64,000 nucleotides of DNA from Bacteroidota bacterium (GTDB lineage: Bacteria; Bacteroidota; Bacteroidia; Bacteroidales; DTGW01): assembly GCA_029550865.1 (NCBI GenBank), contig JAKPGM010000079.1, positions 27,323-91,322 on the forward strand. Direction: 5' to 3'. The position numbers were made by a program, and so were the translations under genes. This document shows, piece by piece, positions 13,183 through 64,000 of the stretch (position 1 is the stretch's first letter; every line of letters starts with the position of its first letter). The notes under the pieces are model-generated. The model did no database searches, had not been told where the DNA came from, and saw only the letters and a list, made by a program, of their open reading frames with translations.

Positions 13183-13208
13183 AAATTATTTTAATGTTTT
13201 TAACAAAG

Positions 13209-32736: not shown

Positions 32737-32786
32737 TTTTAAATATGGTCAATTACAAACTCTTTTGTCCGAAAGTAATCTAATGG

Positions 32787-32890: not shown

Positions 32891-32940
32891 AAAAAATTAT
32901 AGGCTTATATTTTTATAAAAATTCTTAAATACAAACTATT

Positions 32941-45224: not shown

Positions 45225-45527
45225 ATGTTAATTGTTATATGTTTATGCTTATCTAACAATCTGATGGAAAATATGTTTTTAAAATCTTAAAATATGTTAA
45301 TCTTATATAGTAAAATTTCCAGTATTCTATTGAAAAAATAAGCCTGTATACGCAACCCTGTAGTTTAGCATTCAATCAGATTCTTAGACTTTGCTATCAT
45401 TCGATGATTTTAATGAACTTTGTTACTTTGAAAGATTTTTAACTAAAAGAAAAAATTGTGTTCAGTGAAACATTAAATCATGAAATAAAGAAGTTTTTTG
45501 AGTTATTTTGCCAGCAAAAGTTTAGCG

Positions 45528-46430: not shown

Positions 46431-46447
46431 TGCATTTTGCGAGAAAG

Positions 46448-46463
46448 TATTTTTGTATTTTTG
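46448..46463 (+). promoter_or_regulatory. tandem candidate -7 boxes (TATTTTTG TATTTTTG) upstream of purK
   Basis: Two adjacent exact TAnnTTTG matches, the second 21 nt upstream of ATG 46484. A TTG lies at 46437-46439. Confidence 0.35.
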
Positions 46464-46483
46464 TCTCGTAAAGTAAAATATAC

Positions 46484-47650
46484 ATGGGAGATATTTATTC
46501 GGGAAATTTAAAGCTGGGTATTATTGCTGGAGGACAGCTGGCTAAGATGCTTATTCAGGAGGCCAGCAAGTGGGATATTTCGACTTTTGTTCTGGATCAG
46601 GAAGATGACTGTCCTGCTGGTCAAATTGCTACTCGGTTTGTACGGGGTAGCCGTTTTGATTTTGAAGCTGTGTACAATTTCGGTAAGCTAGTCGATGTGC
46701 TAACCTATGAGATAGAAAGCATTAATGTTGAGGCGCTTTATAAGCTGAAGTCGGAAGGGATACAGTTGCTACCCGATCCGTCTATCCTGGAATTAATTCA
46801 GGATAAAGGTAAACAGAAGGATTTCTACTGGCAACATGGTTATCCCACAGCCCCCTATCAACATTATGCCTCAAAGAATGAAATTCTTGAAGCCATTAAG
46901 CAAGGTAGGTTAAAATTTCCTTTTGTGCAGAAACAGTGTAAGGAAGGATATGATGGACGTGGGGTAGCCGTAATTAATAATGAACATGACGTATCAAAAT
47001 TGCTCGATGCGCCGTCAATTGTGGAAGAAAAGGTAACTATTGACCGGGAAATTTCAGTGATTGTTGCCCGTAATGCAAGCGGGCAGATAAAAAGTTTTCC
47101 AGTAGTAGAAATGGAATTTGAACCTAATGCCAACCTGGTTGACAAATTGTTGTGTCCGGCTCAAATTCCGGAAAATATTGCGAGGGATGCCCAACAACTT
47201 GCTGAAAGCCTCATCGAGTCGATGAATATGATTGGTCTTCTGGCAGTTGAATTTTTTCTTGATGTGCATCAAAAGCTATATATCAACGAAAGCGCACCCC
47301 GTCCTCACAATAGCGGGCATCATACCATCGAAAGTAACCTGACCTCACAGTATGAGCAGCATCTGCGTGCAATTTTAAATTTGCCCCTGGGTGATACGCA
47401 AATACTCAAGCCTGCGGTAATGGTTAATCTTCTGGGTGAACCAGGTAAGCAGGGCCCCGTAAGGTACGAGGGTTTGAAAGAGGCTTTGGCTATTGAAGGG
47501 GTTAAAATACACCTGTATGGTAAAAAACAAACTCGCGGTTATCGTAAAATGGGGCATATCACTATTGTAGCCAATACCTTACAGGAGGCCAGTGAAAAGG
47601 CGGAAAAAGTAAAGCAAATCCTAAAAGTAACCACATGGAGCAAAAATTAG
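46484..47650 (+). CDS. purK: 5-(carboxyamino)imidazole ribonucleotide synthase
   Basis: ATP-grasp protein (LGIIAGGQLAKML; ESAPRPHNSGHHT), overlapping purE by 16 nt. Confidence 0.92.
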   Translation: MGDIYSGNLKLGIIAGGQLAKMLIQEASKWDISTFVLDQEDDCPAGQIATRFVRGSRFDFEAVYNFGKLVDVLTYEIESINVEALYKLKSEGIQLLPDPSILELIQDKGKQKDFYWQHGYPTAPYQHYASKNEILEAIKQGRLKFPFVQKQCKEGYDGRGVAVINNEHDVSKLLDAPSIVEEKVTIDREISVIVARNASGQIKSFPVVEMEFEPNANLVDKLLCPAQIPENIARDAQQLAESLIESMNMIGLLAVEFFLDVHQKLYINESAPRPHNSGHHTIESNLTSQYEQHLRAILNLPLGDTQILKPAVMVNLLGEPGKQGPVRYEGLKEALAIEGVKIHLYGKKQTRGYRKMGHITIVANTLQEASEKAEKVKQILKVTTWSKN

Positions 47651-48126
47651 TCAGTATTGTCATGGGGTCCGACTCCGACCTTGAAGTGATGAAACAAGCA
47701 GCCGAAATGCTTGAACAATTCGGTATACCTTACGAGCTCGATATTGTTTCTGCACACCGTACCCCCGATAAGATGTTTCAATTTGCATCCGAAGCACACA
47801 AACGCGGCATTAAGGTTATTATTGCAGGTGCTGGAGGTGCTGCACATCTGCCTGGTATGATTGCGGCTATTTCCCCACTTCCTGTTATTGGTGTGCCTAT
47901 CAAATCAAGCAATTCTATCGATGGATGGGATTCTATTCTTTCAATCCTACAAATGCCTAACGGGGTGCCTGTGGCTACCGTCGCGCTGAATGCTGCCAAG
48001 AATGCCGGCATCCTCGCTGCTCAAATCATTGCCGCTACTGACCCTAAAATACTCGAAAAAATTATCGAATACAAAAATTTGCTACGCCAACAAGTGGTTG
48101 AAAAGTCAAAGAAAATTAAAAAATAG
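47635..48126 (+). CDS. purE: 5-(carboxyamino)imidazole ribonucleotide mutase
   Basis: IVMGSDSD, VSAHRTP and AGGAAHLPGM motifs. Confidence 0.95.
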   Translation: MEQKLVSIVMGSDSDLEVMKQAAEMLEQFGIPYELDIVSAHRTPDKMFQFASEAHKRGIKVIIAGAGGAAHLPGMIAAISPLPVIGVPIKSSNSIDGWDSILSILQMPNGVPVATVALNAAKNAGILAAQIIAATDPKILEKIIEYKNLLRQQVVEKSKKIKK

Positions 48127-48226
48127 CTTTGTACATTTTGCTTTCTTTTATTGTTATTTATTGCTCTTCAATATTAATAAGAAGGTAAGGCTGTTGATTT
48201 TTATAGCTAAAGCTTATTTACTGTTT

Positions 48227-48988
48227 ATGATAAATAAATTATTGAATGAGGGCGTTTTTGTTATTCATGCTTTGCATGGTTACGAGCCACACGAAAGAAG
48301 AATCATTGAATTATTTGGAAATAAAGGAATCAATTTCGAATTTGTAGTTGAAGGCGACCCATCTAATTTCCATAAAATATCTTTAGAAAAATACTTTTCA
48401 AAGGATATACATAAAGTTTTATCTCGGGGGACGCTATCCTGTACCTTCAATCATATTCTCGCCTATGAAAAAATAATGGCAAGAAATATTGAATATGCAA
48501 TAGTTTTTGAAAATGATCCGTTTTTCTTGGGAAATTTTGTTGAAAAGTTGAAGAGACTTTTTGATGAAGTTCAACATTTACCTCCAGGATTTATCATTTC
48601 TCTCGAGAACAGTACTTTGCGTTTTCCTTCATATTGGCAAATACGTATGGGAAAGCAATTGTATCGAGCCAGAATAGGAAGAATGGCCGGCGCTTATTTG
48701 ATCGACCGTCAAGCAGTAATTAACATTTTGAATGATATCCAGTATAATAAGTGTGATAGGGTCATTGACTGGTGGCATAATGATTTAATTCAAAGAGGAG
48801 TTATTGATATGTACTGGGCACATCCTCCTTTGGTGGAGCAGGGGTCTCATAATGGAATGTTAAGTTCAACCATTTCAACGCAGTCTGCTACACTAATGCG
48901 GCGTTTGTCGTGGATAGCGCAGAAATTTTATAAGTATTATATCCGTCGGCTTTTTCACGAAAAAAATATCATTGGTACCGCTTTTTAA
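48227..48988 (+). CDS. glycosyltransferase family 25-like (LOS/LPS type)
   Basis: ATG 48227 (MINKLLNEGVFVIHAL). GT25-like TLSCTFNHILAYEKI...AIVFENDPFF. The track start at 47990 lies inside purE. Confidence 0.7.
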   Translation: MINKLLNEGVFVIHALHGYEPHERRIIELFGNKGINFEFVVEGDPSNFHKISLEKYFSKDIHKVLSRGTLSCTFNHILAYEKIMARNIEYAIVFENDPFFLGNFVEKLKRLFDEVQHLPPGFIISLENSTLRFPSYWQIRMGKQLYRARIGRMAGAYLIDRQAVINILNDIQYNKCDRVIDWWHNDLIQRGVIDMYWAHPPLVEQGSHNGMLSSTISTQSATLMRRLSWIAQKFYKYYIRRLFHEKNIIGTAF

Positions 48989-49255
48989 ATTATTGAAATT
49001 AGGGTTTAATGGACATTTTCAGGCTGCAGTAAAGTAAAACCTATTGGTTTAAGCCACTAACGCAAGGAAAATTTTATAAGTAAATAGTTTTAAAGGCCTC
49101 CTATTCATGGAATGTCAATAAGTAAAGACTGACAAAAACCAGCCTTTATAACTAATTGTCTAAGAATAGCCTAAATTTTCTCCATTACGCCGAAACTAGG
49201 GTTATTATATGTTATTTACTTATCCGCTCGCCCATTCGTTTGAAGTATAAACATC

Positions 49256-49285
49256 GAAGCCACCGACCAAAAGGACGATGGCTTC
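49256..49285 (-). terminator. candidate terminator hairpin downstream of the GH3 gene
   Basis: GAAGCCACCG / CGATGGCTTC pair at 9 of 10 positions with a 10-nt loop. On the minus strand the hairpin is followed by GATGTTTAT, so the U-tract is weak. Confidence 0.3.
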
Positions 49286-49328
49286 AATGACAACACAACA
49301 ACTACTACCACTATGAAACCTACTATGC

Positions 49329-51575
49329 TTATTCGGTTACTCTAAAACTTCCTTTGAGCCCATCTTTGCTGTTGGGACCAATCCATACATCGAAATCGCC
49401 AGGTTCAACGACTTTTTTTAGCTCAGCATTCCAAAAGGCCAGATCGTCAGTCTTGAGGGTGAAGCTTACTGTCTTACTTTCCTGTGGTTTCAGATGAATA
49501 CGCTGAAATCCTTTCAGCTCTTTAACGGGCCGGGTAAGCGAGCCTACACGGTCGCGAATGTACAACTGTACAATTTCATCGGCTTCGTATTTACCCGTAT
49601 TTTTAAGCTGACAGCTTATGGTTATTTCATCTTTCTTTTTTAGATCTGTTTTCGAAAGTTGCAGATTGCTGTATTCAAACGTAGTGTAACTAAGTCCATA
49701 TCCAAAGGGGAATAGAGGTTCAGCTCCCGCATCCAGGTAATAGCTAACATAGCCCATGGTTAGCTGTTTGGCACCAGGAGGTATGCTCCCTATGAGCTGT
49801 AGATTTTCGTGAGGAGGACGCCCCGTATTTTTGTGGTTGTAGTAAATAGGAATCTGTCCAACCGTTTTGGGGAAGGTTACCGGCAATTTGCCCGAAGGTA
49901 CAGCTTTGCCAAAAAGCAGGTCGGCAATAGCAGGCCCCCCCATCGTACCAGGATGCCAGGCATAAAGTACTGCATCCGAAAGATTTACCTCTTTTTCAAT
50001 GGTCAACGGACGACCAGCCATGATAATCAGCACAATAGGCTTTCCGGCTTTTTTTACTTCTTCAACCAGTTGGCTTTGTACCCCTGGTAAGTTTATATCG
50101 GCACGGCAACGTGCTTCACCCGAAAGTATCGATTCTTCGCCCAGAAACATCAACACTACATCGGCTCTTCGTGCTGCTGCAACTGCTTTTCCAAAGTTTG
50201 TCGTATTGATGTCCCGGCTATAGCCAAGGGTTTGCTCGTAAATGATGTTGAGTTTTTTCCCATATTCGGCCTGAATAGCCTTTAATGGGGTTTGCGTATA
50301 ATTTTTGTCGCCATCGAGTACCCAGGTACCCAGCTGATCCGAAGGAGCATCGGCAAGAGGACCAATGATTGCTATGGTTTTAACTTTTTCTGTAAGTGGC
50401 AATACATGGTTTTCGTTTTTCAGTAATACGGCGCTTTGTATGGCTGCTTCCTTTGCAGCTGCCAGATGCGAATCGGCATAAATTTTACTGGTCTGCGGAA
50501 TTTTAACATAAGGATTGTCGAACAAGCCCAACTTAAACTTTACTCGTAAAATATTGCGAACAGCTTCGTCTATTGTTTTAATGGATACTTTGCCTTCTTT
50601 TACCAGGGAGTCGAGATGTTTGGAGAATAGGGGCGATACCATTTCCATATCGAGGCCCGCATTGACTGCTTTCATGGCTGCTTCTTTTTCATCTGCACAG
50701 TATCCGTGCACAATCATTTCGGCCACCGATGCCCAGTCGCTTACTACAAATCCCTTGAAATTCCATTCGTCGCGCAAAACTTTTTTCAGTAAAAAGCTGT
50801 TGCCTGTAGAAGGAACCCCATTTATTTCGTTGAATGAACTCATAGCGGTAGCTACACCTGCATCCACTGCAGCCTTAAACGGAGGCAGTACCACTTCACG
50901 TAATACCACTTCTGGTATAATGGTAGTATTATAGTCGCGACCACCTTCAACAAAACCATATCCTGCATAGTGTTTCATACAGGCGGCCATGCTTGTCGGT
51001 TCCGATAAATCATCCCCTTGAAATCCCTTTACCATGGCGGCTCCCAATACCGACGCAAGATACGGATCTTCACCCAGCGATTCGGCTATACGTCCCCAAC
51101 GTGGATCTCTTGTAACATCAAGCATCGGCGCAAAGGTCCAGCGAATGCCCACTTCTGTAGCCTCTACTGCTGCTACTCTGCCCCCTTCCTCAACAATCAG
51201 CGGATTCCATGTAGCCGCCTGACCCAGAGGTATTGGAAAAATGGTTTTAAAACCATGTATTACATCCCGCGCAAACAAAATAGGAATTTTTAACCGACTC
51301 TCTTCCATCGCTATTCTTTGCAACTCATTGATGGTAGTCGGATTAATTTCATTCAAAAATGAACCAATCTTCCCTGCCTTGATCAACTCTTTGTAGTCTG
51401 CAACATTCCCGTTTGAGTGCAGCTGGTACATCTGGCCAATCTTTTCCTCCAGCGTCATCTGTTTTAGCAGGGCATCTATCCTTTCCTCTACTTTAGCATC
51501 TTGATCCATTTGATGCGCACATCCAAACATCAGAAAAGAAAATGTTCCAATGGCAATTAATGATTTTGTTTTCAT
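49329..51575 (-). CDS. bglX: glycoside hydrolase family 3 beta-glucosidase
   Basis: 748 aa with a signal/lipoprotein leader (FGCAH), the GH3 catalytic region GFVVSDW and a C-terminal Fn3-like domain. Confidence 0.92.
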   Translation of the reverse strand: MKTKSLIAIGTFSFLMFGCAHQMDQDAKVEERIDALLKQMTLEEKIGQMYQLHSNGNVADYKELIKAGKIGSFLNEINPTTINELQRIAMEESRLKIPILFARDVIHGFKTIFPIPLGQAATWNPLIVEEGGRVAAVEATEVGIRWTFAPMLDVTRDPRWGRIAESLGEDPYLASVLGAAMVKGFQGDDLSEPTSMAACMKHYAGYGFVEGGRDYNTTIIPEVVLREVVLPPFKAAVDAGVATAMSSFNEINGVPSTGNSFLLKKVLRDEWNFKGFVVSDWASVAEMIVHGYCADEKEAAMKAVNAGLDMEMVSPLFSKHLDSLVKEGKVSIKTIDEAVRNILRVKFKLGLFDNPYVKIPQTSKIYADSHLAAAKEAAIQSAVLLKNENHVLPLTEKVKTIAIIGPLADAPSDQLGTWVLDGDKNYTQTPLKAIQAEYGKKLNIIYEQTLGYSRDINTTNFGKAVAAARRADVVLMFLGEESILSGEARCRADINLPGVQSQLVEEVKKAGKPIVLIIMAGRPLTIEKEVNLSDAVLYAWHPGTMGGPAIADLLFGKAVPSGKLPVTFPKTVGQIPIYYNHKNTGRPPHENLQLIGSIPPGAKQLTMGYVSYYLDAGAEPLFPFGYGLSYTTFEYSNLQLSKTDLKKKDEITISCQLKNTGKYEADEIVQLYIRDRVGSLTRPVKELKGFQRIHLKPQESKTVSFTLKTDDLAFWNAELKKVVEPGDFDVWIGPNSKDGLKGSFRVTE

Positions 51576-51902
51576 TGTACAAAATTTTAAATTTTATTAA
51601 GGTCGGTTGGTAATATTCTTCCTTACTACATTTACACCTACATGCATACGTTAAGAGCGTTGACTTTTTTGCATCATGTTTCAGTATATGTCAAAGTTAA
51701 TTCAATCTTCGGGTTATTATTTTTTCTAATATACGATTTTTATATAGCATAGCTACTACAAACATACCACATAGGTCTTCCTGGGATAATATTAGGGGAT
51801 AATTTTTGATGCATTTGGGGTATAAAATGTAAAACAACAGATAAAACAGCCAGACATTTTGGCCATCTTACCTGCTGTCCAATGCATATAAAAATGCGCT
51901 GT

Positions 51903-53030
51903 TTATTTTTTTAGCGTGAAATTCAACCAGAAGTAACCCAGAATACCTGAAATTAACGAACCTATAAGGACGGCTATCTTTGAATAATCGAGCTGAATAG
52001 ATTTTTCAAATGACAAAATGGCGATGAAAATGGACATAGTAAAGCCAATACCAGCAAGCATACCTACCCCTAACAGTTGTTTATGCTTTACACCATGGGG
52101 TAAACTGCATACTTTTAATTTCGCTGCCAAAAAAGATAATCCCAATATTCCAACTGGTTTGCCAATAACCAGCCCAAGCGCAATTCCTATGGTGTTCGGA
52201 TTTACTATTCCCTCAAACATTGCTTTGTTTATCTCGATACTGGTATTACCTAAGGCAAAGAGGGGTAAAATGATAAAATTAACCGGCTTAATCAGCGTAT
52301 GTTCCCATTTATTGGATATCGACGTGGGGACCAGAAAAGCAAGCAAAACACCTGCTAATGTGGCATGAATTCCAGAATTATACATGAAAATCCATAGTAT
52401 TATTCCTCCTATAAGATATATCAGGGTATGGTGTATGTTTTTCTTGTTGAGGTAAACTAATAGCAAACTTAGAGCTATCACGCCTAACAGGTAGTATAGC
52501 TTAAGGGATGCAGTGTAAAAAATGGCAATAACCAGTATTGCCCCCAAATCATCTGCTACCGCAAGGGCGGTCAAAAAAACTTTAAGGGGAAGAGGTACCT
52601 GTTTGCCCAGCAGCGATAAAATACCCAAAGAAAAAGCTATATCGGTAGCAACAGGAATCCCGGCACCCCGAATAGAGCCGGTGTGGATGTTTATTCCTAT
52701 ATATATTAATGCTGGGGCTATCATTCCACCCAGAGCACCCACTACGGGCAACATAGCTTTTTTTACACTGGATAGCTCACCTTCACGTAGTTCTCGCTTA
52801 AGTTCAAGCCCTATAAGCAAGAAAAAAACTGCCATTAATGCATCATTAATAAAATGTAAGGTGCTAAAACCACTTACTTCAATGTGCCATAAATGCGAAT
52901 AAGAGTGAGGAAAAAACAAATTGGTGGCCAGTAGCGAAAAAATAGTGCATCCTAATAAAAGTAATCCTCCAGCTTTTTCGTTTTCAGTAAACTCTTGAAA
53001 TAATTTAAATGGTCGTTTTTTAATAGCCAT
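51903..53030 (-). CDS. nhaA: Na+/H+ antiporter NhaA
   Basis: 375-aa polytopic protein with FFLLIGLELKREL and ALAVADDLGAI (the conserved DD pair). Confidence 0.92.
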   Translation of the reverse strand: MAIKKRPFKLFQEFTENEKAGGLLLLGCTIFSLLATNLFFPHSYSHLWHIEVSGFSTLHFINDALMAVFFLLIGLELKRELREGELSSVKKAMLPVVGALGGMIAPALIYIGINIHTGSIRGAGIPVATDIAFSLGILSLLGKQVPLPLKVFLTALAVADDLGAILVIAIFYTASLKLYYLLGVIALSLLLVYLNKKNIHHTLIYLIGGIILWIFMYNSGIHATLAGVLLAFLVPTSISNKWEHTLIKPVNFIILPLFALGNTSIEINKAMFEGIVNPNTIGIALGLVIGKPVGILGLSFLAAKLKVCSLPHGVKHKQLLGVGMLAGIGFTMSIFIAILSFEKSIQLDYSKIAVLIGSLISGILGYFWLNFTLKK

Positions 53031-54081
53031 ACAATAATTTATTTAGCGTATCGACAAAACCTATAACATCTTCTTTTTGAGTATTGAACGAACACATCCA
53101 TCGTACTAAGGGGAATCTCTCATCTGGCGTTTCCCTGTTTTCTTCCCATCTGTAAAAATAACTATATGCTTGAAGAGGTTCGATTATTTTTTCGGGGATC
53201 CTTGCAAAAACGCTGTTGGCCTGTACTTTTTGTACGATATTAACTTGGGGCATTTCCCACAGTTTTTTTTCAAGCAAGCGAGCCATTTGATTAGCGTGAC
53301 TGGCATTTCTGAGCCAGAGATCATCTTTTAAATAAGCCATGTATTGGGCTCCTATATATCGCATTTTCGATAGCAGTTGCATGCCCTGCTTTTGTAAGTA
53401 TTTTATTTTCCCCAATAAGCTTTTATTAATAATAATAACTGCTTCCCCAAAAAGCATACCATTCTTAGTTCCACCAAACGTAACGATGTCCACTCCAGCA
53501 TGGGTGGTAAAATTGGCAATCGATATGGCAAGCGATACGGTAGCATTAGCAATGCGTGCACCATCAATATGCAGGAAAAGATCGTGTTGATGGGCCCATT
53601 GGGATAGTTCTTGAATTTCTTCTGCCGAATACACAGTACCTAACTCAGTAGGCTGGGATATAGAAATTAACCGTGGTTGGTTATGATGCACATTGCCTTT
53701 CAACTTGATAAACGGTTCAAGTTGTTGGGGTGTAATCTTACCATCTTTCGTTTGAATCGTATAAATTTTACTGCCTGCAAATTTCTCCAGCGCTCCACAC
53801 TCGTCGGTGTTTATGTGAGCCGTTTCAGCGCATATTACAGCCTCATACGATTTGCAGCACGTAGCTATTGAAAGCACATTTGCTGCCGTACCGTTGTAGG
53901 TGAATATAACTTCGGCTTCCGGATGTTCAAATACCTCGCGAATAAGTTGTATGGCTTGCCTGGTGTACACATCATCGCCATAAGCGGGAAAATGCCCATC
54001 GTTACATTGCGCTATAGCTTCTACTATTGCTGGATGTGCTCCTGCCCAATTGTCACTCGCAAAGTTATGTGTAGGGTGCAT
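53020..54081 (-). CDS. ltaE: low-specificity L-threonine aldolase (beta-eliminating lyase fold)
   Basis: FASDNWAGAHP N-terminus, HIDGARIANA, and FGGTKNG with the PLP lysine. Confidence 0.85.
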   Translation of the reverse strand: MHPTHNFASDNWAGAHPAIVEAIAQCNDGHFPAYGDDVYTRQAIQLIREVFEHPEAEVIFTYNGTAANVLSIATCCKSYEAVICAETAHINTDECGALEKFAGSKIYTIQTKDGKITPQQLEPFIKLKGNVHHNQPRLISISQPTELGTVYSAEEIQELSQWAHQHDLFLHIDGARIANATVSLAISIANFTTHAGVDIVTFGGTKNGMLFGEAVIIINKSLLGKIKYLQKQGMQLLSKMRYIGAQYMAYLKDDLWLRNASHANQMARLLEKKLWEMPQVNIVQKVQANSVFARIPEKIIEPLQAYSYFYRWEENRETPDERFPLVRWMCSFNTQKEDVIGFVDTLNKLLYGY

Positions 54082-54643
54082 ATACCATTTTTATATCTAT
54101 GGCTAAAATAAGTATTTTTAGAATAAAACACCATTTCCTATATTTTACACTCTACAATTAAAGGTTTGATTCTCCATTACGAAAATGATGAATCTTATGT
54201 ATCCAATACTTAATAGGGTGTATGTGACATTAAGTAATCATGTCCTTTTAGTTTATAGCCCACACCTCCCGTTGCGTGATTTTTTATGTATAACATTCTT
54301 GGGTTAAAATACGTATAATGAGTAACTTATTGAAATGTTAATCTACTTTATCCTGCAATTGACTTTGAATTAATCAAAAAAAATAAGCTATTCATCAAAA
54401 AAAAAAGGTTGTTCGTCAAAGAAAAAGTAGCATTAATGGAATTTTTCCTTTTTTGATATGTAAAAAGTTATTTTCATACGTAAAACATGAAAAAAAATTA
54501 TAATATTTGTCATTGAATTTGGTGATGAAAATTATCAATAATATTCTAAGTGAGATACAACGGTGATTGTGGGGCGTAACATAATAACTCGTATGTGTAA
54601 AACTATAGTGGGGAAATCATCAAAGAACTGTAATCATTTAGCC

Positions 54644-57600
54644 ATGTCCCGGTGGGGGATGATTATCTCGTTGCTGTTCGGGATTCATATGCTTGCTCAG
54701 GGACAGAAGACCTGGGATGGGGGGGCAGGAACCAATAACTGGGGGGACGCCAACAACTGGAATCCGGATGGGGTGCCCACTGCTGCTCAATCAGTTAACA
54801 TTAATCAGGCAGCTACCATTAATGTCAATGTTCCTGCCGTTTGTGCCTCACTTACTATCAATGCAGGTCTTAATAGTGTATCAATAAATATTCTGGGGAA
54901 TAATAGTCTTACCGTTGGTGGTAGTATCACCTATAACAATCCCAATGTCAATCAGACCTATGCTATAAACGTTAATGATGGTACGCTTACAGCAAGTAGC
55001 ATCTCCCTGGCCAATACTACCGCTACCAGTCGAGTAAATCGACTCTCGGTTAACAATGGAACCATTAACGTTAGTGGGAATATTAATGCGCAGGGCAATA
55101 ATGTTGGGGAAAATGTAGTTGAAATAACGGGTAACGGAACGCTTAATGTAGAGGGTACCCTGCAGGGGAATGGGTATAGCTATTCTTTAGCAAATGGTAC
55201 GGTTAATTATTCAAGTGCCAGTGCAGTGGCATTGCTTGGTGGAGTTACCTATAATAATCTTACCATATCAGGCGGTGGTACTAAAACCATTACCGGTGGC
55301 AATGTTACTGTAAATGGAGTACTCAATCTGATCAGTGGCAACATTAGTCTGGGTTCGGGTACTAACAATCTTATTTTGAACGACGGAGCTACTATAGCGG
55401 GTACATTCGATAATACGCGAATGATTGTATGCGACGGTACGGGATCGTTGATAAAGTACAGTAGCACTCCTGCAGGATTTGTTATGACCTATCCGGTAGG
55501 TACTACCAACCGGTATACTCCCATGACCATATCATCGTTGTCAGCTACCCTATCGGGTACCGAAAGTATAGCAGTGCGTACTGTGGCCTCGACAGCGCCC
55601 GGTGCCAATGCTACCGATCTAAATCGTTATTGGAATGTAGTGTTGAGCAGTGGCTTGTCGGTTTCCTCGGCCGATGTAAGCTTTACCTATATCAATCCTG
55701 CTGATGTAGGTACAGGCGGGGATCAGTCCACATATCAGCCATATATTTACAATGGTACCAGTTGGAGCATTGCCCCAGGTGCCAGTGCTCAGGGAATAGT
55801 CCCTATGTCTGCCACCAGCACGCCATTACTGAGTGGGATATGGACTGCCCGTGAAGCCCATACTACTTTCTATTCATATCAATCGGGTAACTGGCAGTCG
55901 GCTGCTACCTGGACGCTCGATCCTTCGGGTACATTATACATCAACCCCGGTAATCAAATTCCATCTACCACTAACGACCGTGTCGTTATCCTCAATGGAC
56001 GCTATGTATATACTACTACCGCCCGAAATGTTGCTTCCTTGCAGATCAATGAAGGAGGAATTCTCGACCTGTTTAGCAGCACTGGCCACAATTTTGGCGA
56101 TGTGAGCGGAAAAGGTACCATGCGTCTTAGCACGCTTACCTTCCCTAATGGAAATTTCGCAGCTTTTGTATCGACCGACGGTGGTACCGTTGAATATTAT
56201 AATGTTAGCGGTACCTTGCAGCAAAATCAGTACAATAATCTAGTCCTGAAAAAAGCAGACAACAATGCTAATAATTATACCATCACCCTGGCTTCCGATC
56301 TTACGGTAAACGGTAAATTGAATGTTGTACGTGTTGCAGGAAGTGGTAATATGACCTTTACAATTGGTAATAATGCTACTCCACGCAACATAGTAGTAGG
56401 CGGCGATCTATATGTTTCTTCGGGAGGACAGATTAATACTTTTGTTGCCAACGTAGTACATACCATGTCAATTGGCGGGAACCTTACCAACTACGGTACA
56501 ATACGTTTTACCAATAGAACTCCTCCGGTTATCAACGCTTACTATATTACTGATCCTACTAACGGTGTGGTTAATGTTACCTTTGTAGGGGCATCCAATA
56601 ATACGGTAAGCTGTTATGGTACTACGGATTTTAACCGCTTTATAGTTAACAAAGGGGTTGACCAAACTTATATATTGACAGTATATTCCAGCCATGTCGA
56701 TAATTTCCGAATCTTTGGTCGCAATGACCAAACAGCAACCGATTATGACCCCAATATTGAGAACCTAAATGGGGTGCTTAAAAATATATGGATTCGAAAT
56801 GGTACACTGAAACTTGAGGGCAATATTCTCATACCTTCATTGACTGAGGGTGGAGGTGATAACTTTTCTATTCCTCTCAACGGTGCACTCTGGCTCAATG
56901 GTCCCAATGTAGAAGTGCATGTTACCAACAATCAGAATGGTTGGGGTAACAAAGCTATAACCTTGTTTGGTAAACTAAGAGTTGACCAAGGATATATCGA
57001 CTTTGGAATTGGAGCCGGGCTCGTATATCGTGGTACTGGAGAAATTGAAATAAATGGTGGATTGTTACGTATGTCCCAATTCCGTCCTTCCAGCTATTCA
57101 ACCAATCCCAAGACTTCTTACAAGCAAACGGGAGGGCACTTTATGGTCATTGGTAACCCCGATGGAACTTACGAACTAAATGATCCCAAAGCTATCTTTT
57201 GCTTTCCTTTTCCAACCAATTCTTTCATCATGACGGGTGGTACCATTACGGTATCCTATGCAACATCCCGTGGTGCTTTCGTAATTGGTTCCGATCCAAG
57301 TAATAATGTTGTTACGGGAGGTACGGTCAATATTGTTATAACCAACAATAATCCTTACTATTTTACTTCGTCGGCACCTATATATAACTTGAATATTTCA
57401 AAAACCGGAGGAACCACTACAACAGTTCAGATTAATAATGTCAATACCGATGGCCTTACAGGAACCCCTACTTCTATTACTACCCCGGCAATGCCGCTAA
57501 CGGTACTCAACGAGATGAAAATATTAACGGGGAATAATCCTATTTTCAATGCCAATAACCAGAATCTTTTTATTGGTGGTACGCTGGAAATTCAAAATGG

Positions 57601-60600
57601 TACTACTTTAAATACGGGTACTAATACTGTATATTTCAATGGTTCAGGGAACCAACAGTTAATTATCAATGGTACTGTAAGTGGTAATTTCAATCATGTA
57701 ACCCTTTCCAATACTTCTACTCTTACCCTGATCAATAGCAATCCTTCAGTACCCATAATTATTAATGGCAATTTGACAATAGGTGCTGGTTGCACGCTCA
57801 TCGATAATGGCAGAATCCTACAGGTTGCCGGTAATATATACAACAGTGGTACACACTTTAAGCCCGTTTCGGGTGCAGGAAGCATACAGCTGATTGGTAC
57901 AGGTAATCAGATTATTGGAGGTAATGGCAATGGTATATTCAACAATCTTACGCTCAACAAAACAGGCGGTAGCGTTACAGCACAGGCTAACTTCACGGTT
58001 ACGGGCGATTTGCGTCTGGGAGGTACAGCGGGGGCACCTGCGCGTTTGAACATGGGAAGCTATCGTTTAACCTTTACTGCTGATGCTAATGTGTATGATG
58101 CCGTTACGGGTACTTCCCAAACAGGCTTCTCTAATAATCGTATGATTGTTACCTCGGGATTGCTCTCGGATAAAGGGGTGACAAGGACATTTACTACATC
58201 GTCTCTATCGTTTAAATATCCATTTGGTGTACAGGTAGGTGCCAATTACTATTATTTGCCAGCTACCATCCAGTTTACAACGGCACCAACCACCCTGGGT
58301 GCTATCACCATTACGCCTGTCAAGTCGCGTCATTATCTTACCCAATCGACGGCTGCGCTTAATTGTTTCTGGAAAACACAAAGTTCGGGCTTTAGCGGTA
58401 TAACTTCTGGAACGCTCATTCAGCAATATCAGTACGCCGATGCAGGACCAAATTTATTTGTAGCTGCAGGAAGCAATGAATTAAATTATATCCCTGCCCG
58501 TTATCGTTATACAGGAGTGTGGTTTACCGATAACGATGTAAATAAGGTCGATGATGGTAACAACATCATCCTGTTTGATACCGATACCTTGCCGCAGGGT
58601 GAATATACTGCTGGTGAATCCTCTGCATTTGGTGCTATTGCAACACTCTATAGCGTAAATGATGGCCCATGGAATAATCCGAATACCTGGTCAACTACGC
58701 GCGGGGGAACGCCTGGTAACGGTGGCATTCCAAATGCTTCTACTATCGTGAAAATTGTCGATAATCATACCGTGACAACCCCTGTTGCAGCTTTTGCAGG
58801 AAGTTTGTTCATTGAAGATGGGTCGGTACTTGACCTGGGAACCGTTACAGGACACAACTTTACTTCCTTGCCCGATAGCGGGGTGGTGGGAACTGGTAAA
58901 TTGCGTATTGCAAGTTCCAATTATTTCCCACAAGGCGATTTTGGGGTTTTCATCGGTCCTAATGGTGGTACCGTTGAATATTATACGGCAGGAGCCAACA
59001 TCACTATTCCGGTTACTTCGGATGTTACCAATTTACCGCTTACAAATTATCGTCACTTAATCCTGACTCCCGCTACAGGAAATAACATTACACTTCCTGC
59101 CACCGATTTGACGGTATATGGAAATCTTACGATAAATGGTACAGGAACAGGACCTAATGACGGTGTACGCACGCCAACAACGGCTTCGTATGTGTATACG
59201 ATTAATGGTAACTTAAATGTTAATTCGGGGCTGTTGGAATATCGAAACAATGTATTACAAACCATAAAAGTATTTGGTAATCTGAATATTGCAAGCGGTG
59301 CAGTATTTAGAGTAAGTGCTGCGGGAACGGTGGTTAACAACGTATTGGAACTTTATGGTAAATTGCTGAACGACGGAACCTTTGATATGAATAACACGGG
59401 AAGAGTATATGTATATTTTAAGGGTTCCCAGAATGCTACAATCAGTGGTGGAGGTGCGGTTTATGATTTCTATAATCTTTATGTCGACAAGGGAAGCGAT
59501 TATACTCCGGTATTATCGCTGCAAAGCAATATAACTACTGGTTTTACCAATCCATTCCTTAATTTGCTCAATGGTACTTTTAGGGTAGATGGGGCTTCTG
59601 TGAATGTGGTATTATCGACCACATCTCCCTTTACTATTCCTGCTACAGCATGCTTGGCTGTGAACAATGGTACAGCAACGGTAGGTACTACCAACAATGC
59701 GGGCGACCTTATTTTGATTGGACGCCTTGAAGTTTCGGGCGGTATGCTGAATATCGGCTCGGGAGGAAATTATAATAATGACATTGAATATGCTTCTGCA
59801 GGTACACCAACTATTGTAGTGAGTGGCGGTACATTAAATGTAAATGGTCAGATACGTCGAAATCTGAACAACACCAGTGGAGCACTCATTTATTCACAGT
59901 CGGGAGGTACTGTAATTGTTAATGGGCAGAATCAAAATGTGACCCGTGCCAAGCTCGAAATTTTAAATGCCTCCAGTAGTTTTACCATGACGGGTGGTAA
60001 TATCATTATACGTCAGGATGGTGGGACTACCTATGGTGACCTATATCTTCGTCCATCCAATTATACGGTTACAGGTGGTACCATTAATTTTGGCGATGGT
60101 TCAACCGCTGCAAACAAGAACTTCCGCCTGATTGCAGGCATTCCTTTATGGAATGTTGAGGTGGGAACCGCTACGGTAACACAAACGGTACAACTATATA
60201 TTTTGCCGCTCACCATTTTGAACGACCTTGCCATCCGGGGTAATTCGGTTTTCAATGCTGCTGGATATAATGTAACAATAAAACATGCACTCATCAATGA
60301 AAATATCAATGCGAGCGGTGGAATCAATGTGGGCGGGTATCGTACAGGCAGTGCTTCTCAGGTGACTACCTTCAACGGTACGGCTCCCATGTTGGTAGTT
60401 GGTAATGGCGCTAATCTTACGAATTTTGCAAATTTAGTCCTTAATTCTCCAAGCACGCTTACCATCCAGAACAATATTCAGGTCAATGCTGACCTTACCC
60501 TCTCTGCTGGTACGCTTGCTGATAATGGAAATCAAATAGTGTTGAAGGGTAATGTTTACAATGCTACTACGCATACCAGCGTAAATGGAAGTGGAGGTAT

Positions 60601-63600
60601 CATATTCAGTGGTGCATCCCAGCAAACCATTACGGGAAGTGGTTCGGGTGTATTTGGTAATGTTGTGTTGAACAATACTTTTGGTATTTTGATGAAGGAC
60701 GATAGCCGAATCAATGGTAAGCTTACCTTCCTGGCAGGTACACTTTATATAGATGATTACCTGCTCACTTTTGGACCCGATGCTACCATTGGTGGCCTGC
60801 CCGATGCTACCCGTTGTATCATACTTAATGGAGCTTTGAGCGACAAAGGGGTACGCAAATATTTTAACAGTGGCGATAGTAATCCTTTTACTTATCCCAT
60901 TGGCATATCCGATAAATACACACCGGTAACCTTTGATTTCTCTGCCAATGATGCTAATGGGTATATTACCGTAAAACCTGTTAATCAATTGCATCCCAGT
61001 GTGTTGAATGTAAATACCAGCAAGCTTTCCTATTATTGGAATGTAACTTCTGGTGGGTTAAATAACTACACAGTGTCTCATACATATCAGTATGTACAGT
61101 CCGATGTTAATGGTGTAGAGGCTGATTATGAAGGTGAACGTTTTGACAATGTTACAAATGCCTGGAGTACGGTTGGAAGTGTGAATACTACTAACAATAC
61201 GATTAATATTACTAATGTCAATTATATCGATGGTGAATACACGGCTGGCGATCAGCCCAACTATTCGGCACTGCCCGTTCTGTATTCACGTGTAACATCT
61301 GGTAATTGGAATGATGGTTCGTCCTGGTCGTATACGGCGGGGGGGGGTGGACCTGCATGCGGGTGTACGCCAAATGGCAATCCCGTTGTTATTGAAACGG
61401 GTCAAACAATTACCATCAATGCCAATGGTGCTTTTGCTTATTCGGTTGACATAAAAGGTACGCTCGATGTTAATAATACTGTCTTCCATAATTTAGGACA
61501 CATCAGTGGTGGTGGTAGGCTTTCGGTTGATGCTACCAACGATGGTGTATTTGTGCTGCCTGGTGGCGATTATGATGCCTTTTTGAATAATACAACTTCC
61601 ATCATCGAATTGGGTGGTAGTGTCGACGCCACAATGCCTTTGAAACCTGGTAATTATTACAAGCCATACAATCATCTTGAGCTTACCGGTAGCGGGCGAA
61701 AATATATCAGTGCAGAGAATTTGCGAATCAAGGGTTATCTTAGCATTGCTAACGGAACTGTGCTCGATAATAGCTTGTACGATAAGAATGTTTCCATTTA
61801 CGGTTCGTGGAATGATGCCAATGCGTCTATCAATGGATTTGTTCCAGGACAGGGTACAGTTGTTTTTGAAGGTACCAGCCAGCAATATATTAATTCGCAG
61901 TTGGATGAAAATTTCTACAACTTGCAGTTGAACAATGGTGCTGGTCTTGTCATTAGTGGTAACGGCAATGTTGTTGTGTCCAATATACTTACGCTATCCA
62001 ATGGTATTATCTCTTCGTCTACTTCGCCACAACGCATGGTAAGAATTTCTAATACTTCACCTTCGGCAATTGTAGGTGGTGGTAGTAATGCTTTTGTGGC
62101 ATGTCCGCTCAGTAAAAATATTATCAGTGGTCAATCGTTTACTTTCCCTGTTGGCGATGGCACGCGTTATGGGTACATGAGCTTGTTGAACACCAATGTA
62201 GCTTCGTCGCCACAATATTGGACGGTAAAATATTACAATGCCAATCCCTCGCCAACCTATCCTACTGATGCAGCGCATTTGCAGTCGCCTATCACTGGCG
62301 TGAGTGATAATGAATACTGGGTAGTAACACGGCCCACAGGAGGAATCGCCAACATTCGGTTGCGGTGGGATGCCACATCCTATCCTTCCTATACAGCTAG
62401 TGCTGCTTTGCGTTCAATGCTTAGAGTTGTTGAATACGGTAGTAATGTATGGGCCGAACGAAGCAATGCTGCTGGTGTGTCGGGTAATGCCGTGTCGGGA
62501 ACCATCACTACGAATGCCCCCGTTACTGCCGATGATTATGTTTTCACGATTGGGGTGAGTGGGGTTACTGCTACCATCGCAGATGTTTCGCCAGTGGAAA
62601 TATGTAACAATGGTGAGGCTGCTTCAATACCTGTGGTACTTACAGGTACTGCTCCCTGGACGCTAACCTATCGTACAACGGGAACGCCAACGCGTACATT
62701 TACACAGTCGGGTATTTCTACAAGCAATTATACCATTCAGCTTACGGGGATCGACATCGGTGGAACGGGTACCTTTGCCTTTTCCTTGATTTCGGTGACC
62801 GATGGAAATGGCATAAATGGTGTATGCAGCAATACTACCAAGCAGATTACGGTAAAGACAACCTATATCCCCTCCATTACAGGCCCAACCACCGTTGGTA
62901 GTGGGGAAACCCGCAACTATTCTACGCCTAATAATGCAGGTGCTACCTATTCCTGGACCTGGCAGGGCGCTTCGGGGGGTACCATTCAGTCGCCTACTGC
63001 AAATGCAACCAATATTGTTTTTGGTGCACCGGGTACCTATACTTTGCGGGTTACTGAGACATACAATGGATGTTCGGCTTATGACGAAGAAGTAATTGTA
63101 GTTCAAAATGTTCCAGCACCTGATATTACCCCCGCAACAGCCAATGTATGTCAAAACGACGTGGTAAATTATTCTACTGCCGCAGTGGCAGGTCATGAGT
63201 ATTATTGGACGGTTACGGGAGGTTCGTGCAGCAATTGCGATGTTTGGACAACCTCTAATACTATTACGGTAACCTGGACTACCCCTGGAACCGGTTCAGT
63301 ATCGGTTATTGAATCGACCGATGGTACGCACAGCGTAACCGGCACAGATACGAAAAATTATAACATAAGTGCGACAATCAATGCTTATACTGTATCTGCT
63401 GCAGCACCCACGATATGTGAAAATACATCGACCAATATTCTGCTCAGTGGGTCGCAGGTGGGTGTAACTTACCAGCTTCGCAACAACATAGATAATTCGC
63501 CCATTGGACCCAGTGTACCGGGTACGGGTGGTGCGTTATCTTTCCCAACGGGAACTCTGACTTCGACCACTACGTTCAATGTTTTAGCTTATAACTCGGG

Positions 63601-64000
63601 TTGCCAGTTACCGATGACGGGTACTCCTACGGTTACTGTACAGCCACAACCAACTATTACCCTTGTAACTGGAAATGCAGAGGTATGTGCAGGGAATACA
63701 AGTGCCTTGCTGGCTTATTCGGCTACCACGCAATCGCCTACGCAATATAGTATCGATTCTGATGCATCGGCCAATGCGGCAGGCATTAATGACGTGGTAA
63801 ATCAGACTTTGACGGCAAGTCCTATCGATATCATTGTTCCAAACAGTATTACCCCCAATACATATAACGGTGTGCTTACTGTGTCGAACGCATTGTGTAC
63901 AAGTGTAAATTATGCAATTCAGGTAATTGTGCATGCAAATCCTTCGGGAACGCTTACAAGCAGTGATCCTGATAATGAAATATGTGCTGGTGATAATGTG
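54644..64000 (+). CDS. giant secreted cell-surface repeat protein (at least 3119 aa in window; 3' end beyond the right edge), probable adhesin-like T9SS cargo
   Basis: Not in the ORF track because it is open-ended. The frame from ATG 54644 (alternative ATG 54593) is stop-free to base 64000; I checked it by hand at 54644, 57002, 61262 and 63962. Signal-peptide-like MSRWGMIISLLFGIHMLAQG, G/N/T/S-rich beta-helix-like repeats and a C-terminal Cys-bracketed Ig-like array. Confidence 0.85.
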   Translation, partial: MSRWGMIISLLFGIHMLAQGQKTWDGGAGTNNWGDANNWNPDGVPTAAQSVNINQAATINVNVPAVCASLTINAGLNSVSINILGNNSLTVGGSITYNNPNVNQTYAINVNDGTLTASSISLANTTATSRVNRLSVNNGTINVSGNINAQGNNVGENVVEITGNGTLNVEGTLQGNGYSYSLANGTVNYSSASAVALLGGVTYNNLTISGGGTKTITGGNVTVNGVLNLISGNISLGSGTNNLILNDGATIAGTFDNTRMIVCDGTGSLIKYSSTPAGFVMTYPVGTTNRYTPMTISSLSATLSGTESIAVRTVASTAPGANATDLNRYWNVVLSSGLSVSSADVSFTYINPADVGTGGDQSTYQPYIYNGTSWSIAPGASAQGIVPMSATSTPLLSGIWTAREAHTTFYSYQSGNWQSAATWTLDPSGTLYINPGNQIPSTTNDRVVILNGRYVYTTTARNVASLQINEGGILDLFSSTGHNFGDVSGKGTMRLSTLTFPNGNFAAFVSTDGGTVEYYNVSGTLQQNQYNNLVLKKADNNANNYTITLASDLTVNGKLNVVRVAGSGNMTFTIGNNATPRNIVVGGDLYVSSGGQINTFVANVVHTMSIGGNLTNYGTIRFTNRTPPVINAYYITDPTNGVVNVTFVGASNNTVSCYGTTDFNRFIVNKGVDQTYILTVYSSHVDNFRIFGRNDQTATDYDPNIENLNGVLKNIWIRNGTLKLEGNILIPSLTEGGGDNFSIPLNGALWLNGPNVEVHVTNNQNGWGNKAITLFGKLRVDQGYIDFGIGAGLVYRGTGEIEINGGLLRMSQFRPSSYSTNPKTSYKQTGGHFMVIGNPDGTYELNDPKAIFCFPFPTNSFIMTGGTITVSYATSRGAFVIGSDPSNNVVTGGTVNIVITNNNPYYFTSSAPIYNLNISKTGGTTTTVQINNVNTDGLTGTPTSITTPAMPLTVLNEMKILTGNNPIFNANNQNLFIGGTLEIQNGTTLNTGTNTVYFNGSGNQQLIINGTVSGNFNHVTLSNTSTLTLINSNPSVPIIINGNLTIGAGCTLIDNGRILQVAGNIYNSGTHFKPVSGAGSIQLIGTGNQIIGGNGNGIFNNLTLNKTGGSVTAQANFTVTGDLRLGGTAGAPARLNMGSYRLTFTADANVYDAVTGTSQTGFSNNRMIVTSGLLSDKGVTRTFTTSSLSFKYPFGVQVGANYYYLPATIQFTTAPTTLGAITITPVKSRHYLTQSTAALNCFWKTQSSGFSGITSGTLIQQYQYADAGPNLFVAAGSNELNYIPARYRYTGVWFTDNDVNKVDDGNNIILFDTDTLPQGEYTAGESSAFGAIATLYSVNDGPWNNPNTWSTTRGGTPGNGGIPNASTIVKIVDNHTVTTPVAAFAGSLFIEDGSVLDLGTVTGHNFTSLPDSGVVGTGKLRIASSNYFPQGDFGVFIGPNGGTVEYYTAGANITIPVTSDVTNLPLTNYRHLILTPATGNNITLPATDLTVYGNLTINGTGTGPNDGVRTPTTASYVYTINGNLNVNSGLLEYRNNVLQTIKVFGNLNIASGAVFRVSAAGTVVNNVLELYGKLLNDGTFDMNNTGRVYVYFKGSQNATISGGGAVYDFYNLYVDKGSDYTPVLSLQSNITTGFTNPFLNLLNGTFRVDGASVNVVLSTTSPFTIPATACLAVNNGTATVGTTNNAGDLILIGRLEVSGGMLNIGSGGNYNNDIEYASAGTPTIVVSGGTLNVNGQIRRNLNNTSGALIYSQSGGTVIVNGQNQNVTRAKLEILNASSSFTMTGGNIIIRQDGGTTYGDLYLRPSNYTVTGGTINFGDGSTAANKNFRLIAGIPLWNVEVGTATVTQTVQLYILPLTILNDLAIRGNSVFNAAGYNVTIKHALINENINASGGINVGGYRTGSASQVTTFNGTAPMLVVGNGANLTNFANLVLNSPSTLTIQNNIQVNADLTLSAGTLADNGNQIVLKGNVYNATTHTSVNGSGGIIFSGASQQTITGSGSGVFGNVVLNNTFGILMKDDSRINGKLTFLAGTLYIDDYLLTFGPDATIGGLPDATRCIILNGALSDKGVRKYFNSGDSNPFTYPIGISDKYTPVTFDFSANDANGYITVKPVNQLHPSVLNVNTSKLSYYWNVTSGGLNNYTVSHTYQYVQSDVNGVEADYEGERFDNVTNAWSTVGSVNTTNNTINITNVNYIDGEYTAGDQPNYSALPVLYSRVTSGNWNDGSSWSYTAGGGGPACGCTPNGNPVVIETGQTITINANGAFAYSVDIKGTLDVNNTVFHNLGHISGGGRLSVDATNDGVFVLPGGDYDAFLNNTTSIIELGGSVDATMPLKPGNYYKPYNHLELTGSGRKYISAENLRIKGYLSIANGTVLDNSLYDKNVSIYGSWNDANASINGFVPGQGTVVFEGTSQQYINSQLDENFYNLQLNNGAGLVISGNGNVVVSNILTLSNGIISSSTSPQRMVRISNTSPSAIVGGGSNAFVACPLSKNIISGQSFTFPVGDGTRYGYMSLLNTNVASSPQYWTVKYYNANPSPTYPTDAAHLQSPITGVSDNEYWVVTRPTGGIANIRLRWDATSYPSYTASAALRSMLRVVEYGSNVWAERSNAAGVSGNAVSGTITTNAPVTADDYVFTIGVSGVTATIADVSPVEICNNGEAASIPVVLTGTAPWTLTYRTTGTPTRTFTQSGISTSNYTIQLTGIDIGGTGTFAFSLISVTDGNGINGVCSNTTKQITVKTTYIPSITGPTTVGSGETRNYSTPNNAGATYSWTWQGASGGTIQSPTANATNIVFGAPGTYTLRVTETYNGCSAYDEEVIVVQNVPAPDITPATANVCQNDVVNYSTAAVAGHEYYWTVTGGSCSNCDVWTTSNTITVTWTTPGTGSVSVIESTDGTHSVTGTDTKNYNISATINAYTVSAAAPTICENTSTNILLSGSQVGVTYQLRNNIDNSPIGPSVPGTGGALSFPTGTLTSTTTFNVLAYNSGCQLPMTGTPTVTVQPQPTITLVTGNAEVCAGNTSALLAYSATTQSPTQYSIDSDASANAAGINDVVNQTLTASPIDIIVPNSITPNTYNGVLTVSNALCTSVNYAIQVIVHANPSGTLTSSDPDNEICAGDNV

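Follow-up and report, generated by a model that had tools for sequence, protein, structure and literature searches.

A giant repeat protein of the Bacteroidales without a sorting domain of its own and the type B gene that recurs in its neighbourhood

Giant repeat proteins are among the least understood gene products of the Bacteroidota. The closest described systems to the one treated here are SprB and RemA of Flavobacterium johnsoniae with SprF, and PG1035-PorP-PorE of Porphyromonas gingivalis. Proteins with a type B sorting domain, such as SprB and PG1035, are exported by the secretion system of type IX (T9SS) and are held at the cell surface by barrels of the PorP/SprF type (PMC9143113). 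Type B substrates are often encoded beside a PorP-like shuttle, and "orphan" type B substrates have been described as well (PMC12618676). This paper deals with a giant gene at the 3' end of a stretch of 64,000 nucleotides (the window, hereafter) from an uncultured bacterium of the order Bacteroidales (GenBank assembly GCA_029550865.1, contig JAKPGM010000079.1, positions 27,323 to 91,322 of the forward strand). A giant secreted repeat protein as such is ordinary for the Bacteroidota; what is new is a subclass of such giants which has no sorting domain and is characterized by a C-terminal motif and a recurrent set of adaptor genes.

The giant resembles SprB and RemA in being a low-charge, repeat-built protein of a gldD- and gldE-bearing member of the Bacteroidota, in its immunoglobulin-like (Ig-like) C-terminal repeats including the "CHU_C-associated" Ig_7 domain, and, as regards SprB, in its genetic tie to a type B sorting domain, to which PorP/SprF is added in related loci. 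Unlike SprB, its body consists of an unnamed module, predicted to be a β-helix, and not of the SprB repeat (PF13573 gave no match at E ≤ 0.1 on the 3119 aa encoded in the window, nor on the tail), the type B sorting domain lies on a separate polypeptide of 348 aa, and the giant itself ends in a short tail motif not known from SprB. PG1035 is a small type B surface protein bound to a PorP-type barrel (PMC9143113), and the 348-aa product, judged by its domains (Ig-like and CHU_C), is of the same general make-up; PG1035 has not been reported to be linked to tail-tagged partners or to giants.

The giant gene and its C-terminus

One frame runs from the ATG at 54644 to the last base of the window at 64000 on the forward strand, that is, 3119 codons without a stop, and the longest open reading frame (ORF) in all the other frames across this interval encodes 186 aa. 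Both the open frame and its absence from the ORF list had been pointed out in the initial annotation, which was made from the letters alone, and both are borne out; the gene is absent from the list because open-ended ORFs are not listed and the window cuts the gene. The preceding in-frame stop is at 54551. While the ATG at 54644 is not conserved (Leu in the orthologues L011 and L013), an in-frame ATG at 54593 is kept in all the orthologues (L001, L011 and L013) and is also the start of a database copy, P0066. The true start is probably this ATG, so 3136 codons of the gene would lie inside the window. The bias in composition that had been described is also real: T (12.5%), G (11.6%), N (11.3%), S (8.5%) and V (8.1%) make up 52% of the ORF, D + E + K + R only 9.5%, and 11 of the 22 Cys residues fall within the last 466 residues, from nucleotide 62603 on.

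The predicted signal peptide (54593–54703, forward strand; 37 aa, MCKTIVGKSSKNCNHLAMSRWGMIISLLFGIHMLAQG) has a basic n-region, a hydrophobic core and a small-residue site (AQG/Q) followed by Gln, with cleavage predicted before Q (QKTWDGG...). These features, read by inspection of the sequence and agreeing with what had been seen at first, are common to all the orthologues, and the giant is predicted to be exported by Sec. In the Bacteroidota, an N-terminal Gln is habitual after cleavage by signal peptidase I, and the Gln after the predicted site in all the orthologues fits this habit.

The end of the gene was taken from contigs found via protein look-ups; among the metagenome contigs there was no exact match to the last 60 nt of the window. 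Window positions 44593–64000 are matched gap-free at 99.918% DNA identity by contig L017, which has the same upstream genes, and positions 57066–64000 at 99.755% by L030 (GCA_035392485.1). In both, the stop codon TAA is found 216 nt past the window end (71 codons), giving a full length of 3207 aa and a mass of 327 kDa. P0066, a match of the profile search described below, is also 3207 aa long and is 99.8% identical to the window ORF across all 3119 residues. In addition, a scan of a genome collection with the last 400 residues of the ORF gave an orthologue in a Bacteroidales metagenome-assembled genome (MAG), L001, which is colinear with residues 3–3119 (84.9% identity in protein, 75.6% in DNA) and differs by only three indels, each of 1–2 residues, over 3116 aligned codons. 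The proportions of nonsynonymous and synonymous differences between the two (pN 0.09; pS 0.72, saturated) correspond to a dN/dS of about 0.04 (Nei-Gojobori), with values below 0.09 in every segment. The metagenome contigs L011, L013 and L014 contain the same giant gene at 83–84% identity, and a giant of 3207–3218 aa is present in five independent assemblies.

The giant ORF is a real, conserved gene under strong purifying selection. A gene so long and repetitive, with certain relatives fragmented in other assemblies (L010, and L026 as against L025), might be suspected to be an assembly artefact, a collapsed repeat or a pseudogene, and a collapsed or chimeric assembly had been named at the outset as something that would overturn the case. 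However, the internal repeats are just 24–34% identical, too diverged for a collapse, the independent assemblies agree gap-free at 99.8–99.9%, and purifying selection (dN/dS about 0.04) acts along the entire length. The available data refute these readings, and their probability is negligible.

The complete protein ends in ...NGDIVTVVVTDANGCSSSYPGITTTVHPVPSVNPVLHN; its last domain is a PF19081 Ig_7 domain ("Ig-like domain CHU_C associated"), and a tail of 12 residues follows. PF19081 scores 30.4 bits on the L011 orthologue (cut-off 27.3) and 26.9 bits on P0066. Scans down to E ≤ 1 of the last 571 aa of L001, 149 aa of L011 and 130 aa of P0066 gave no match to the type A sorting domain (PF18962/TIGR04183), nor was the type B domain (PF13585/TIGR04131) matched on the C-termini of the giant or its orthologues. 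The same scan recovers PF18962 in 73 other members of the module family, so the method works. The giant has no T9SS sorting domain of its own. The initial annotation had proposed to look for one once the stop codon was reached and had counted its absence against a T9SS substrate; what lies there is Ig_7 and the tail, without PF18962, TIGR04183, PF13585 or TIGR04131.

It could be argued that the giant is an ordinary T9SS cargo with its own type A or type B sorting domain past the window, anchored like SprB or the gingipains. Its relatives speak for such a view: when the C-terminal 130 residues of 149 of the best 150 family members were compared with Pfam, 73 had PF18962, 7 had PF13585 and 69 had neither, that is, 80 of the 149 representatives end in a T9SS sorting domain and the module family is mostly T9SS cargo. 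The host also has gldD and gldE. On the other hand, the complete gene ends 71 codons past the window in Ig_7 and 12 further residues, and no sorting-domain model matches the giant or four orthologues even at E ≤ 1. For recognisable sorting domains this explanation is refuted, and we consider it very improbable. The giant exposes a subset of the family which is without the sorting domain that is thought obligatory for T9SS export and which has a common tag and common partner genes.

The tag is as follows. Of the family giants that lack a sorting domain, about one in four has the ending PxTGPxYH[IV]xN plus 0–4 residues. A count of the strict pattern G[PQ].Y[HR][IVL].N over 505,641 residues gave 24 instances; all of them lie no more than 6 residues from the C-terminus, and none is internal. 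Looser patterns are terminal in 32–33 proteins against 0.4–1.4 expected from their internal frequency. The tail of the giant, PVPSVNPVLHN-COOH, conforms to the C-terminal pattern PxPxxxP[IV]xH(x0-2)N, and its spacing P-x-P-x-x-x-P-[VI]-x-H is the same as in another giant, P0111 (PVPATSPVEHLKNN), and in small proteins encoded nearby or in related loci (PTPTTQPIQHIKNL, ATPQLNPITHN). We read this tail as a shortened, divergent variant of PxTGPxYH[IV]xN. These tail sequences were not found in the literature searched.

The type B neighbour and a possible route in trans

A conserved operon of six genes, with intergenic spacings of 12–40 nt, begins with the giant; it is found in L001, L011, L013 and L014 and in the window organism (L029/L030). 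Genes 2–5, just past the window end and 3' of the giant (L017 19636–21394; L030 7163–9988), encode small secreted Ig-like proteins of about 225, 231, 224 and 225 aa without a Pfam or NCBIfam match. The first of them ends in ..YATPQLNPITHN (..ATPQLNPITHN), a tail of the giant type, which is retained by its homologues down to about 50% identity. In L001 this protein has a lipoprotein-like ..LSIGC.. sequence, but a role as lipoprotein anchor was rejected, because the orthologues, including that of the window organism, have ordinary signal peptides. Gene 6, present also in L030, encodes a 348-aa protein made up of Ig-like domains and CHU_C, that is, a type B sorting domain (PF13585, 70 bits; TIGR04131, 56.7 bits).

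A 1513-aa secreted protein without a Pfam, NCBIfam or PDB match is encoded 3' of the operon in L011 (15496–20037) and L014 (6107–10648). It was dropped as a component of the system, as neither L001 nor the window organism (L030) has it. At 15500–17400, L001 has in place of its gene a stretch of about 1.9 kb without ORFs.

The same kinds of genes are brought together in more distant relatives. In L021 the order is a giant, a 316-aa protein ending in PTPTTQPIQHIKNL, a 339-aa CHU_C protein and PorP_SprF; in L022 it is PorP_SprF, a giant, two tail-tagged small proteins and CHU_C; in L023 it is a tail-tagged small protein, CHU_C, PorP_SprF and a giant; and in L024 a giant is followed by a 528-aa Ig_7 protein ending in ..TGPNYHIPNYFGL, with a CHU_C protein further on. 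The CHU_C proteins of L021, L022 and L023 (about 340 aa) are full-length orthologues of the 348-aa protein (34–36% identity, E 1e-53 to 1e-60). Furthermore, the reciprocal test, a search with the part of the small type B adaptor outside its sorting domain, gave L025, where a 34%-identical adaptor homologue sits between two tail-tagged small proteins (..PTTGPIYHIPNL and ..PVTGPINHIKNL) and PorP_SprF, after which comes a 4271-aa giant of the same module family. Five related loci combine tail-tagged proteins with an orthologous small type B protein, and four of these (L021, L022, L023 and L025) have PorP/SprF alongside.

The reading that we prefer, and on which our judgement is evenly divided between true and false, is that the giant is exported by Sec and displayed as a long rigid surface fibre, docked by its tail to a type B adaptor which is itself exported by the T9SS and held by PorP/SprF. 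The giant would leave the cytoplasm via Sec by virtue of its signal peptide. The 348-aa protein would be exported by the T9SS and held on a barrel of the PorP/SprF type, as PG1035 is on PorP and SprB on SprF; it is read as such a base because of the SprB/PG1035 precedent (PMC9143113) and the shuttle linkage (PMC12618676). By their tails, the giant and the small tail-bearing protein would both dock to this adaptor, either before export (co-export) or after export (anchoring), and the giant would be shown on the cell surface as a fibre of about 70–80 nm for adhesion or gliding-type surface contact. The whole would amount to a SprB-like adhesin whose cargo and sorting domain are on different polypeptides, and any T9SS link of the giant appears to act in trans. 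We infer the export route, the docking, the surface display and the adhesive function alike.

A more general proposal, which we put forward tentatively and regard as possible but doubtful, is that the strictly C-terminal motif (PxTGPxYH[IV]xN and its PxPxxxP[IV]xH..N variants) is an undescribed sorting or docking tag for a branch of the T9SS that acts in trans via the type B adaptor of about 340 aa and a PorP/SprF barrel. If true, the tag would serve giant β-helix fibres and small Ig-like proteins without a sorting domain for co-export or anchoring, and secretion signal and cargo would be separate polypeptides. In that case, censuses of T9SS substrates based on sorting domains would overlook an entire class of surface proteins of very large size, and small type B proteins, PG1035 among them, would be given a suggested function. 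Should the tag play no such part, what remains is a clean annotation of a giant surface protein of the ordinary kind.

Several points weigh against these proposals. To our knowledge, no T9SS substrate is exported without a sorting domain of its own. The tail of the giant is a divergent, shorter form of the motif, and the small proteins 2–4 of the operon have conserved hydrophobic or aromatic ends (..APELSW, ..APVISDIF, ..IPSIGDIEF) unlike PxxxP[IV]xH. The giants P0085, P0140 and P0067 bear the tail motif and have no CHU_C or PorP gene in the DNA at hand. No PorP/SprF gene (PF11751) adjoins the operon in L030, L001 or L011, and none lies within the 64-kb window; that of the window organism may be encoded elsewhere, by analogy with the "orphan" type B substrates. 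The presence of gldD and gldE alone is no proof of a T9SS in the host. All the steps beyond a Sec-exported β-helix giant are drawn from gene neighbourhood and motif conservation, and the role in adhesion is a guess from architecture. The first proposal of a T9SS-exported surface adhesin accordingly stands in part: the relatives are mostly T9SS cargo (80 of 149), whereas the giant is without a sorting domain and any T9SS link would be indirect, via a type B protein encoded five genes downstream.

The tail could also be a minimal export or sorting signal which is read directly by the T9SS translocon, a shuttle or a sortase-like enzyme, the type B neighbour acting beside it at the surface instead of carrying it. 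Many divergent giants and small proteins have the motif strictly at the C-terminus, three motif-bearing giants have no adaptor gene nearby, and short type A sorting domains of 43–55 aa exist in Prevotella (PMC11969387), all of which agree with such a signal. Against it, all known T9SS signals are much longer than the tail, in which the B, D and E motifs and the terminal basic residue are missing, on which ground the short Prevotella-type sorting domain was rejected as its identity; moreover, the recurrent linkage to adaptor and PorP/SprF genes suggests dependence on them. We hold a directly read signal to be unlikely.

In another conceivable arrangement the giant and the small proteins polymerise, each tail being inserted as a donor strand into the next Ig-like domain, with the type B protein as the membrane-proximal base. 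Each tail does resemble an inter-Ig linker plus a first strand followed by the stop, and five Ig-like proteins come in a fixed order in the operon. Such a filament is quite unlikely, considering that the PxxxP[IV]xH tail is found on just two of the five products upstream of the type B gene and that pilin-like features, lipoprotein precursors and processing sites are all absent.

A side observation concerns L027 (4751–9359), where a 26%-identical adaptor homologue lies beside two proteins that end in ..SITDN, a SprB/Ig_7/fn3 protein of 1305 aa and another of 214 aa. This locus suggests that the tail-plus-adaptor arrangement is not limited to the family of β-helix giants.

Modules, fold and family

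Plain self-BLAST of the giant gave only the identity match, and the repeats were revealed by a masked sliding-window self-comparison, in which modules recur at offsets of about 907–926 residues. A W-x(3-9)-W motif opens the modules, at residues 24, 417, 1343 and 2222, and they close with a domain that carries the signatures YP.G..(K)YTP, YYW and DG.YTAG in the alignment of the copies. Short module 1 (54704–55870) opens with KTWDGGAGTNNWGDANNWNPDG, which is followed by β-helix turns and a β-sandwich with YPVG..RYTP; residues 140–520 match residues 1942–2322 at 27–30% identity, and the sandwich aligns with those of the other copies. Long module 2 (55871–58645, about 925 aa) has the W-x-W start motif, a long β-helix and a terminal β-sandwich, and it matches module 3 at offsets 907–926 with 27–34% identity (E down to 4e-31; 33% in the alignment). 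Long module 3 (58646–61303, 886 aa), the copy chosen for modelling, consists of a parallel β-helix with three strands to the turn and then a β-sandwich (module residues about 725–870, nucleotides about 60779–61285). Short module 4 (61304–62503) starts with GNWNDGSSWS and has few β-helix turns and a sandwich with FTFPVGDGTRYGY; it is supported by the similarity of residues 1944–2159 to 2359–2554, the motif positions and the sandwich alignment. The rest of the window (62504–64000) encodes Cys-containing Ig-like domains, five complete ones and the start of a sixth, with boundaries read from the sequence; the sixth is the PF19081 Ig_7 domain, completed beyond the window and followed by the tail ...TTVHPVPSVNPVLHN-stop as read in L017. 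All these features are on the forward strand. The giant is composed of two long modules of about 900 aa and two short modules of about 400 aa, all of one uncharacterised family, and then six Ig-like domains.

The body gave nothing above threshold against Pfam, NCBIfam and PDB sequences, in agreement with the first impression that it belongs to no characterised family, and a match to Ig-like_POM152 at residues 2649–2701 was sub-threshold. The fold and function of the modules had been left open, and the fold can now be narrowed by prediction. AlphaFold2 with an alignment of 18 sequences gave for module 3 an all-β model with a predicted local distance difference test (pLDDT) of 89.5 and a predicted template modelling (TM) score of 0.80, and the module-end sandwich modelled alone gave a pLDDT of 90.4. 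The model of module 3 has about three short strands per about 24 residues across residues about 30–720, therefore a parallel β-helix, and a sandwich of longer strands at about 725–870. According to the model, each module is a parallel β-helix capped by a β-sandwich, a clear fold class without a close structural relative. If a helix turn is taken as about 4.8 Å and each Ig-like or sandwich domain as about 4 nm, the giant would measure roughly 70–80 nm when extended.

Foldseek found no significant neighbour of the whole module 3 in the PDB (best E 0.04, TM ≤ 0.24); the weak neighbours were RsaA, phage tailspikes and the passengers of Hbp, Ag43, SepA and EspC. Viral predicted structures gave only weak parallel β-helix matches (best E 2.8e-4, TM ≤ 0.29). 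Autotransporter and two-partner passengers (Ag43, Hbp, SepA, EspC and PATR proteins) use a long right-handed β-helix as a rigid surface stalk or adhesin, as is proposed for the giant, and its module start, W-x-GG..-NW....NW, resembles PATR starts. The giant differs from them in having no C-terminal β-barrel, in TM-scores of at most 0.24 and in phylum and export route. Pfam and NCBIfam gave no match on the giant to a β-barrel translocator, a two-partner secretion (TPS) domain or PF12951 (PATR), and its C-terminus consists of Ig-like domains. Phage tailspikes, the pectate-lyase superfamily and the S-layer protein RsaA belong to the same parallel β-helix class and are the best, though weak, structural neighbours; the giant differs from them as well, with E ≥ 0.04 in the PDB, no catalytic or trimerisation signatures and no sequence similarity.

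Since the parallel β-helix is also the fold of pectate lyases and phage depolymerases, both among the weak Foldseek neighbours, the giant might be secreted without any relation to the T9SS, as a periplasmic or outer-membrane-associated β-helix protein or enzyme (polysaccharide lyase, depolymerase), with the type B linkage coincidental or regulatory. The lack of a PorP/SprF gene adjoining the operon in the window organism would be in line with this. However, no catalytic family is matched, the family is dominated by multi-module giants with Ig-like tails and T9SS sorting domains, and the linkage is seen again in at least five divergent loci, one of them from the reciprocal search. We regard this explanation as unlikely.

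Self-cleavage at the module junctions was also thought of and set aside. The best Foldseek matches of the sandwich were the FIIND of NLRP1 (E 0.14, TM 0.41) and GAIN (Foldseek probability 0.77), autoproteolytic β-sandwiches which recurred in the search; these matches are non-significant, and there is no conserved nucleophile or cleavage motif.

A sequence search with a single module gave 65 homologues, nearly all from Bacteroidota MAGs, without Pfam domains save occasional PF18962 tails. Among 1.84 billion representatives, the module profile matched 13,990 clusters at E ≤ 1e-3, of which 2,859 reach E ≤ 1e-30, and P0066 scored 2004 bits. The best 150 matches are, bar one fragment, multi-module proteins of 1.9–5.5 thousand aa. 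With its two full and two shortened copies, the W-x-W start, the helix and the signature-bearing sandwich, the giant is a member of this family. About 14,000 clusters (50% identity) without a Pfam or NCBIfam model can now be placed in a confident fold class with a defined module grammar. Some of the relatives carry in JGI the name "fibronectin-binding autotransporter adhesin".

Gene calls in this family deserve caution. The 4271-aa giant is one gene in L025 (12534–21227) and two calls in the near-identical L026 (12534–20030 and 20116–21227), that is, 2498 aa and a 1744-aa product running off the locus. At L010, the locus of P0009, the closest fragmentary homologue, the gene looks fragmented by frameshifts and is uninformative. 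Many database "homologues" of 500–1500 aa are probably pieces of giants.

Upstream region and the rest of the window

A three-way alignment of the DNA 5' of the giant gene showed a block of 41 nt (54486–54526, forward strand) that is identical in L001 and L011 although the flanking genes differ, with looser conservation over 54400–54545. This block lies about 90–110 nt 5' of the giant start and contains TAATATTTG at 54501–54509, which fits the Bacteroidota -7 box TAnnTTTG; it is a putative promoter. The upstream region matches no Rfam family, and no family reaches its gathering score anywhere in the window.

Elsewhere the window carries ordinary chromosomal genes, namely valS, hom, sucC, gcvP, folC, ettA, mutY, ssb, gldE, gldD, purK/E, bglX and nhaA. 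The two gliding genes, noticed already in the initial annotation, are confirmed by TIGR03520 (gldE, 512 bits) and TIGR03512 (gldD, 232 bits).

A dispersed intergenic repeat of about 110–160 bp (GGTCGGATGGAACTCGCATGT...TTTTCATAGTCGTTTGTGAAT...ATACATGCT) occurs in several copies of 72–88% identity, at 32489–32631, 32784–32900, 13036–13230, 10839–10982 and 22328–22426 of the window and at 20547–20953 of L030. Two of the copies, between mutY and ssb, flank a GC-rich stretch. In addition, just 3' of gldD and a 4'-phosphopantetheinyl transferase-like gene, positions 36423–37145 encode a member of the geranylgeranylglyceryl/heptaprenylglyceryl phosphate synthase family (NF003198, 258 bits).

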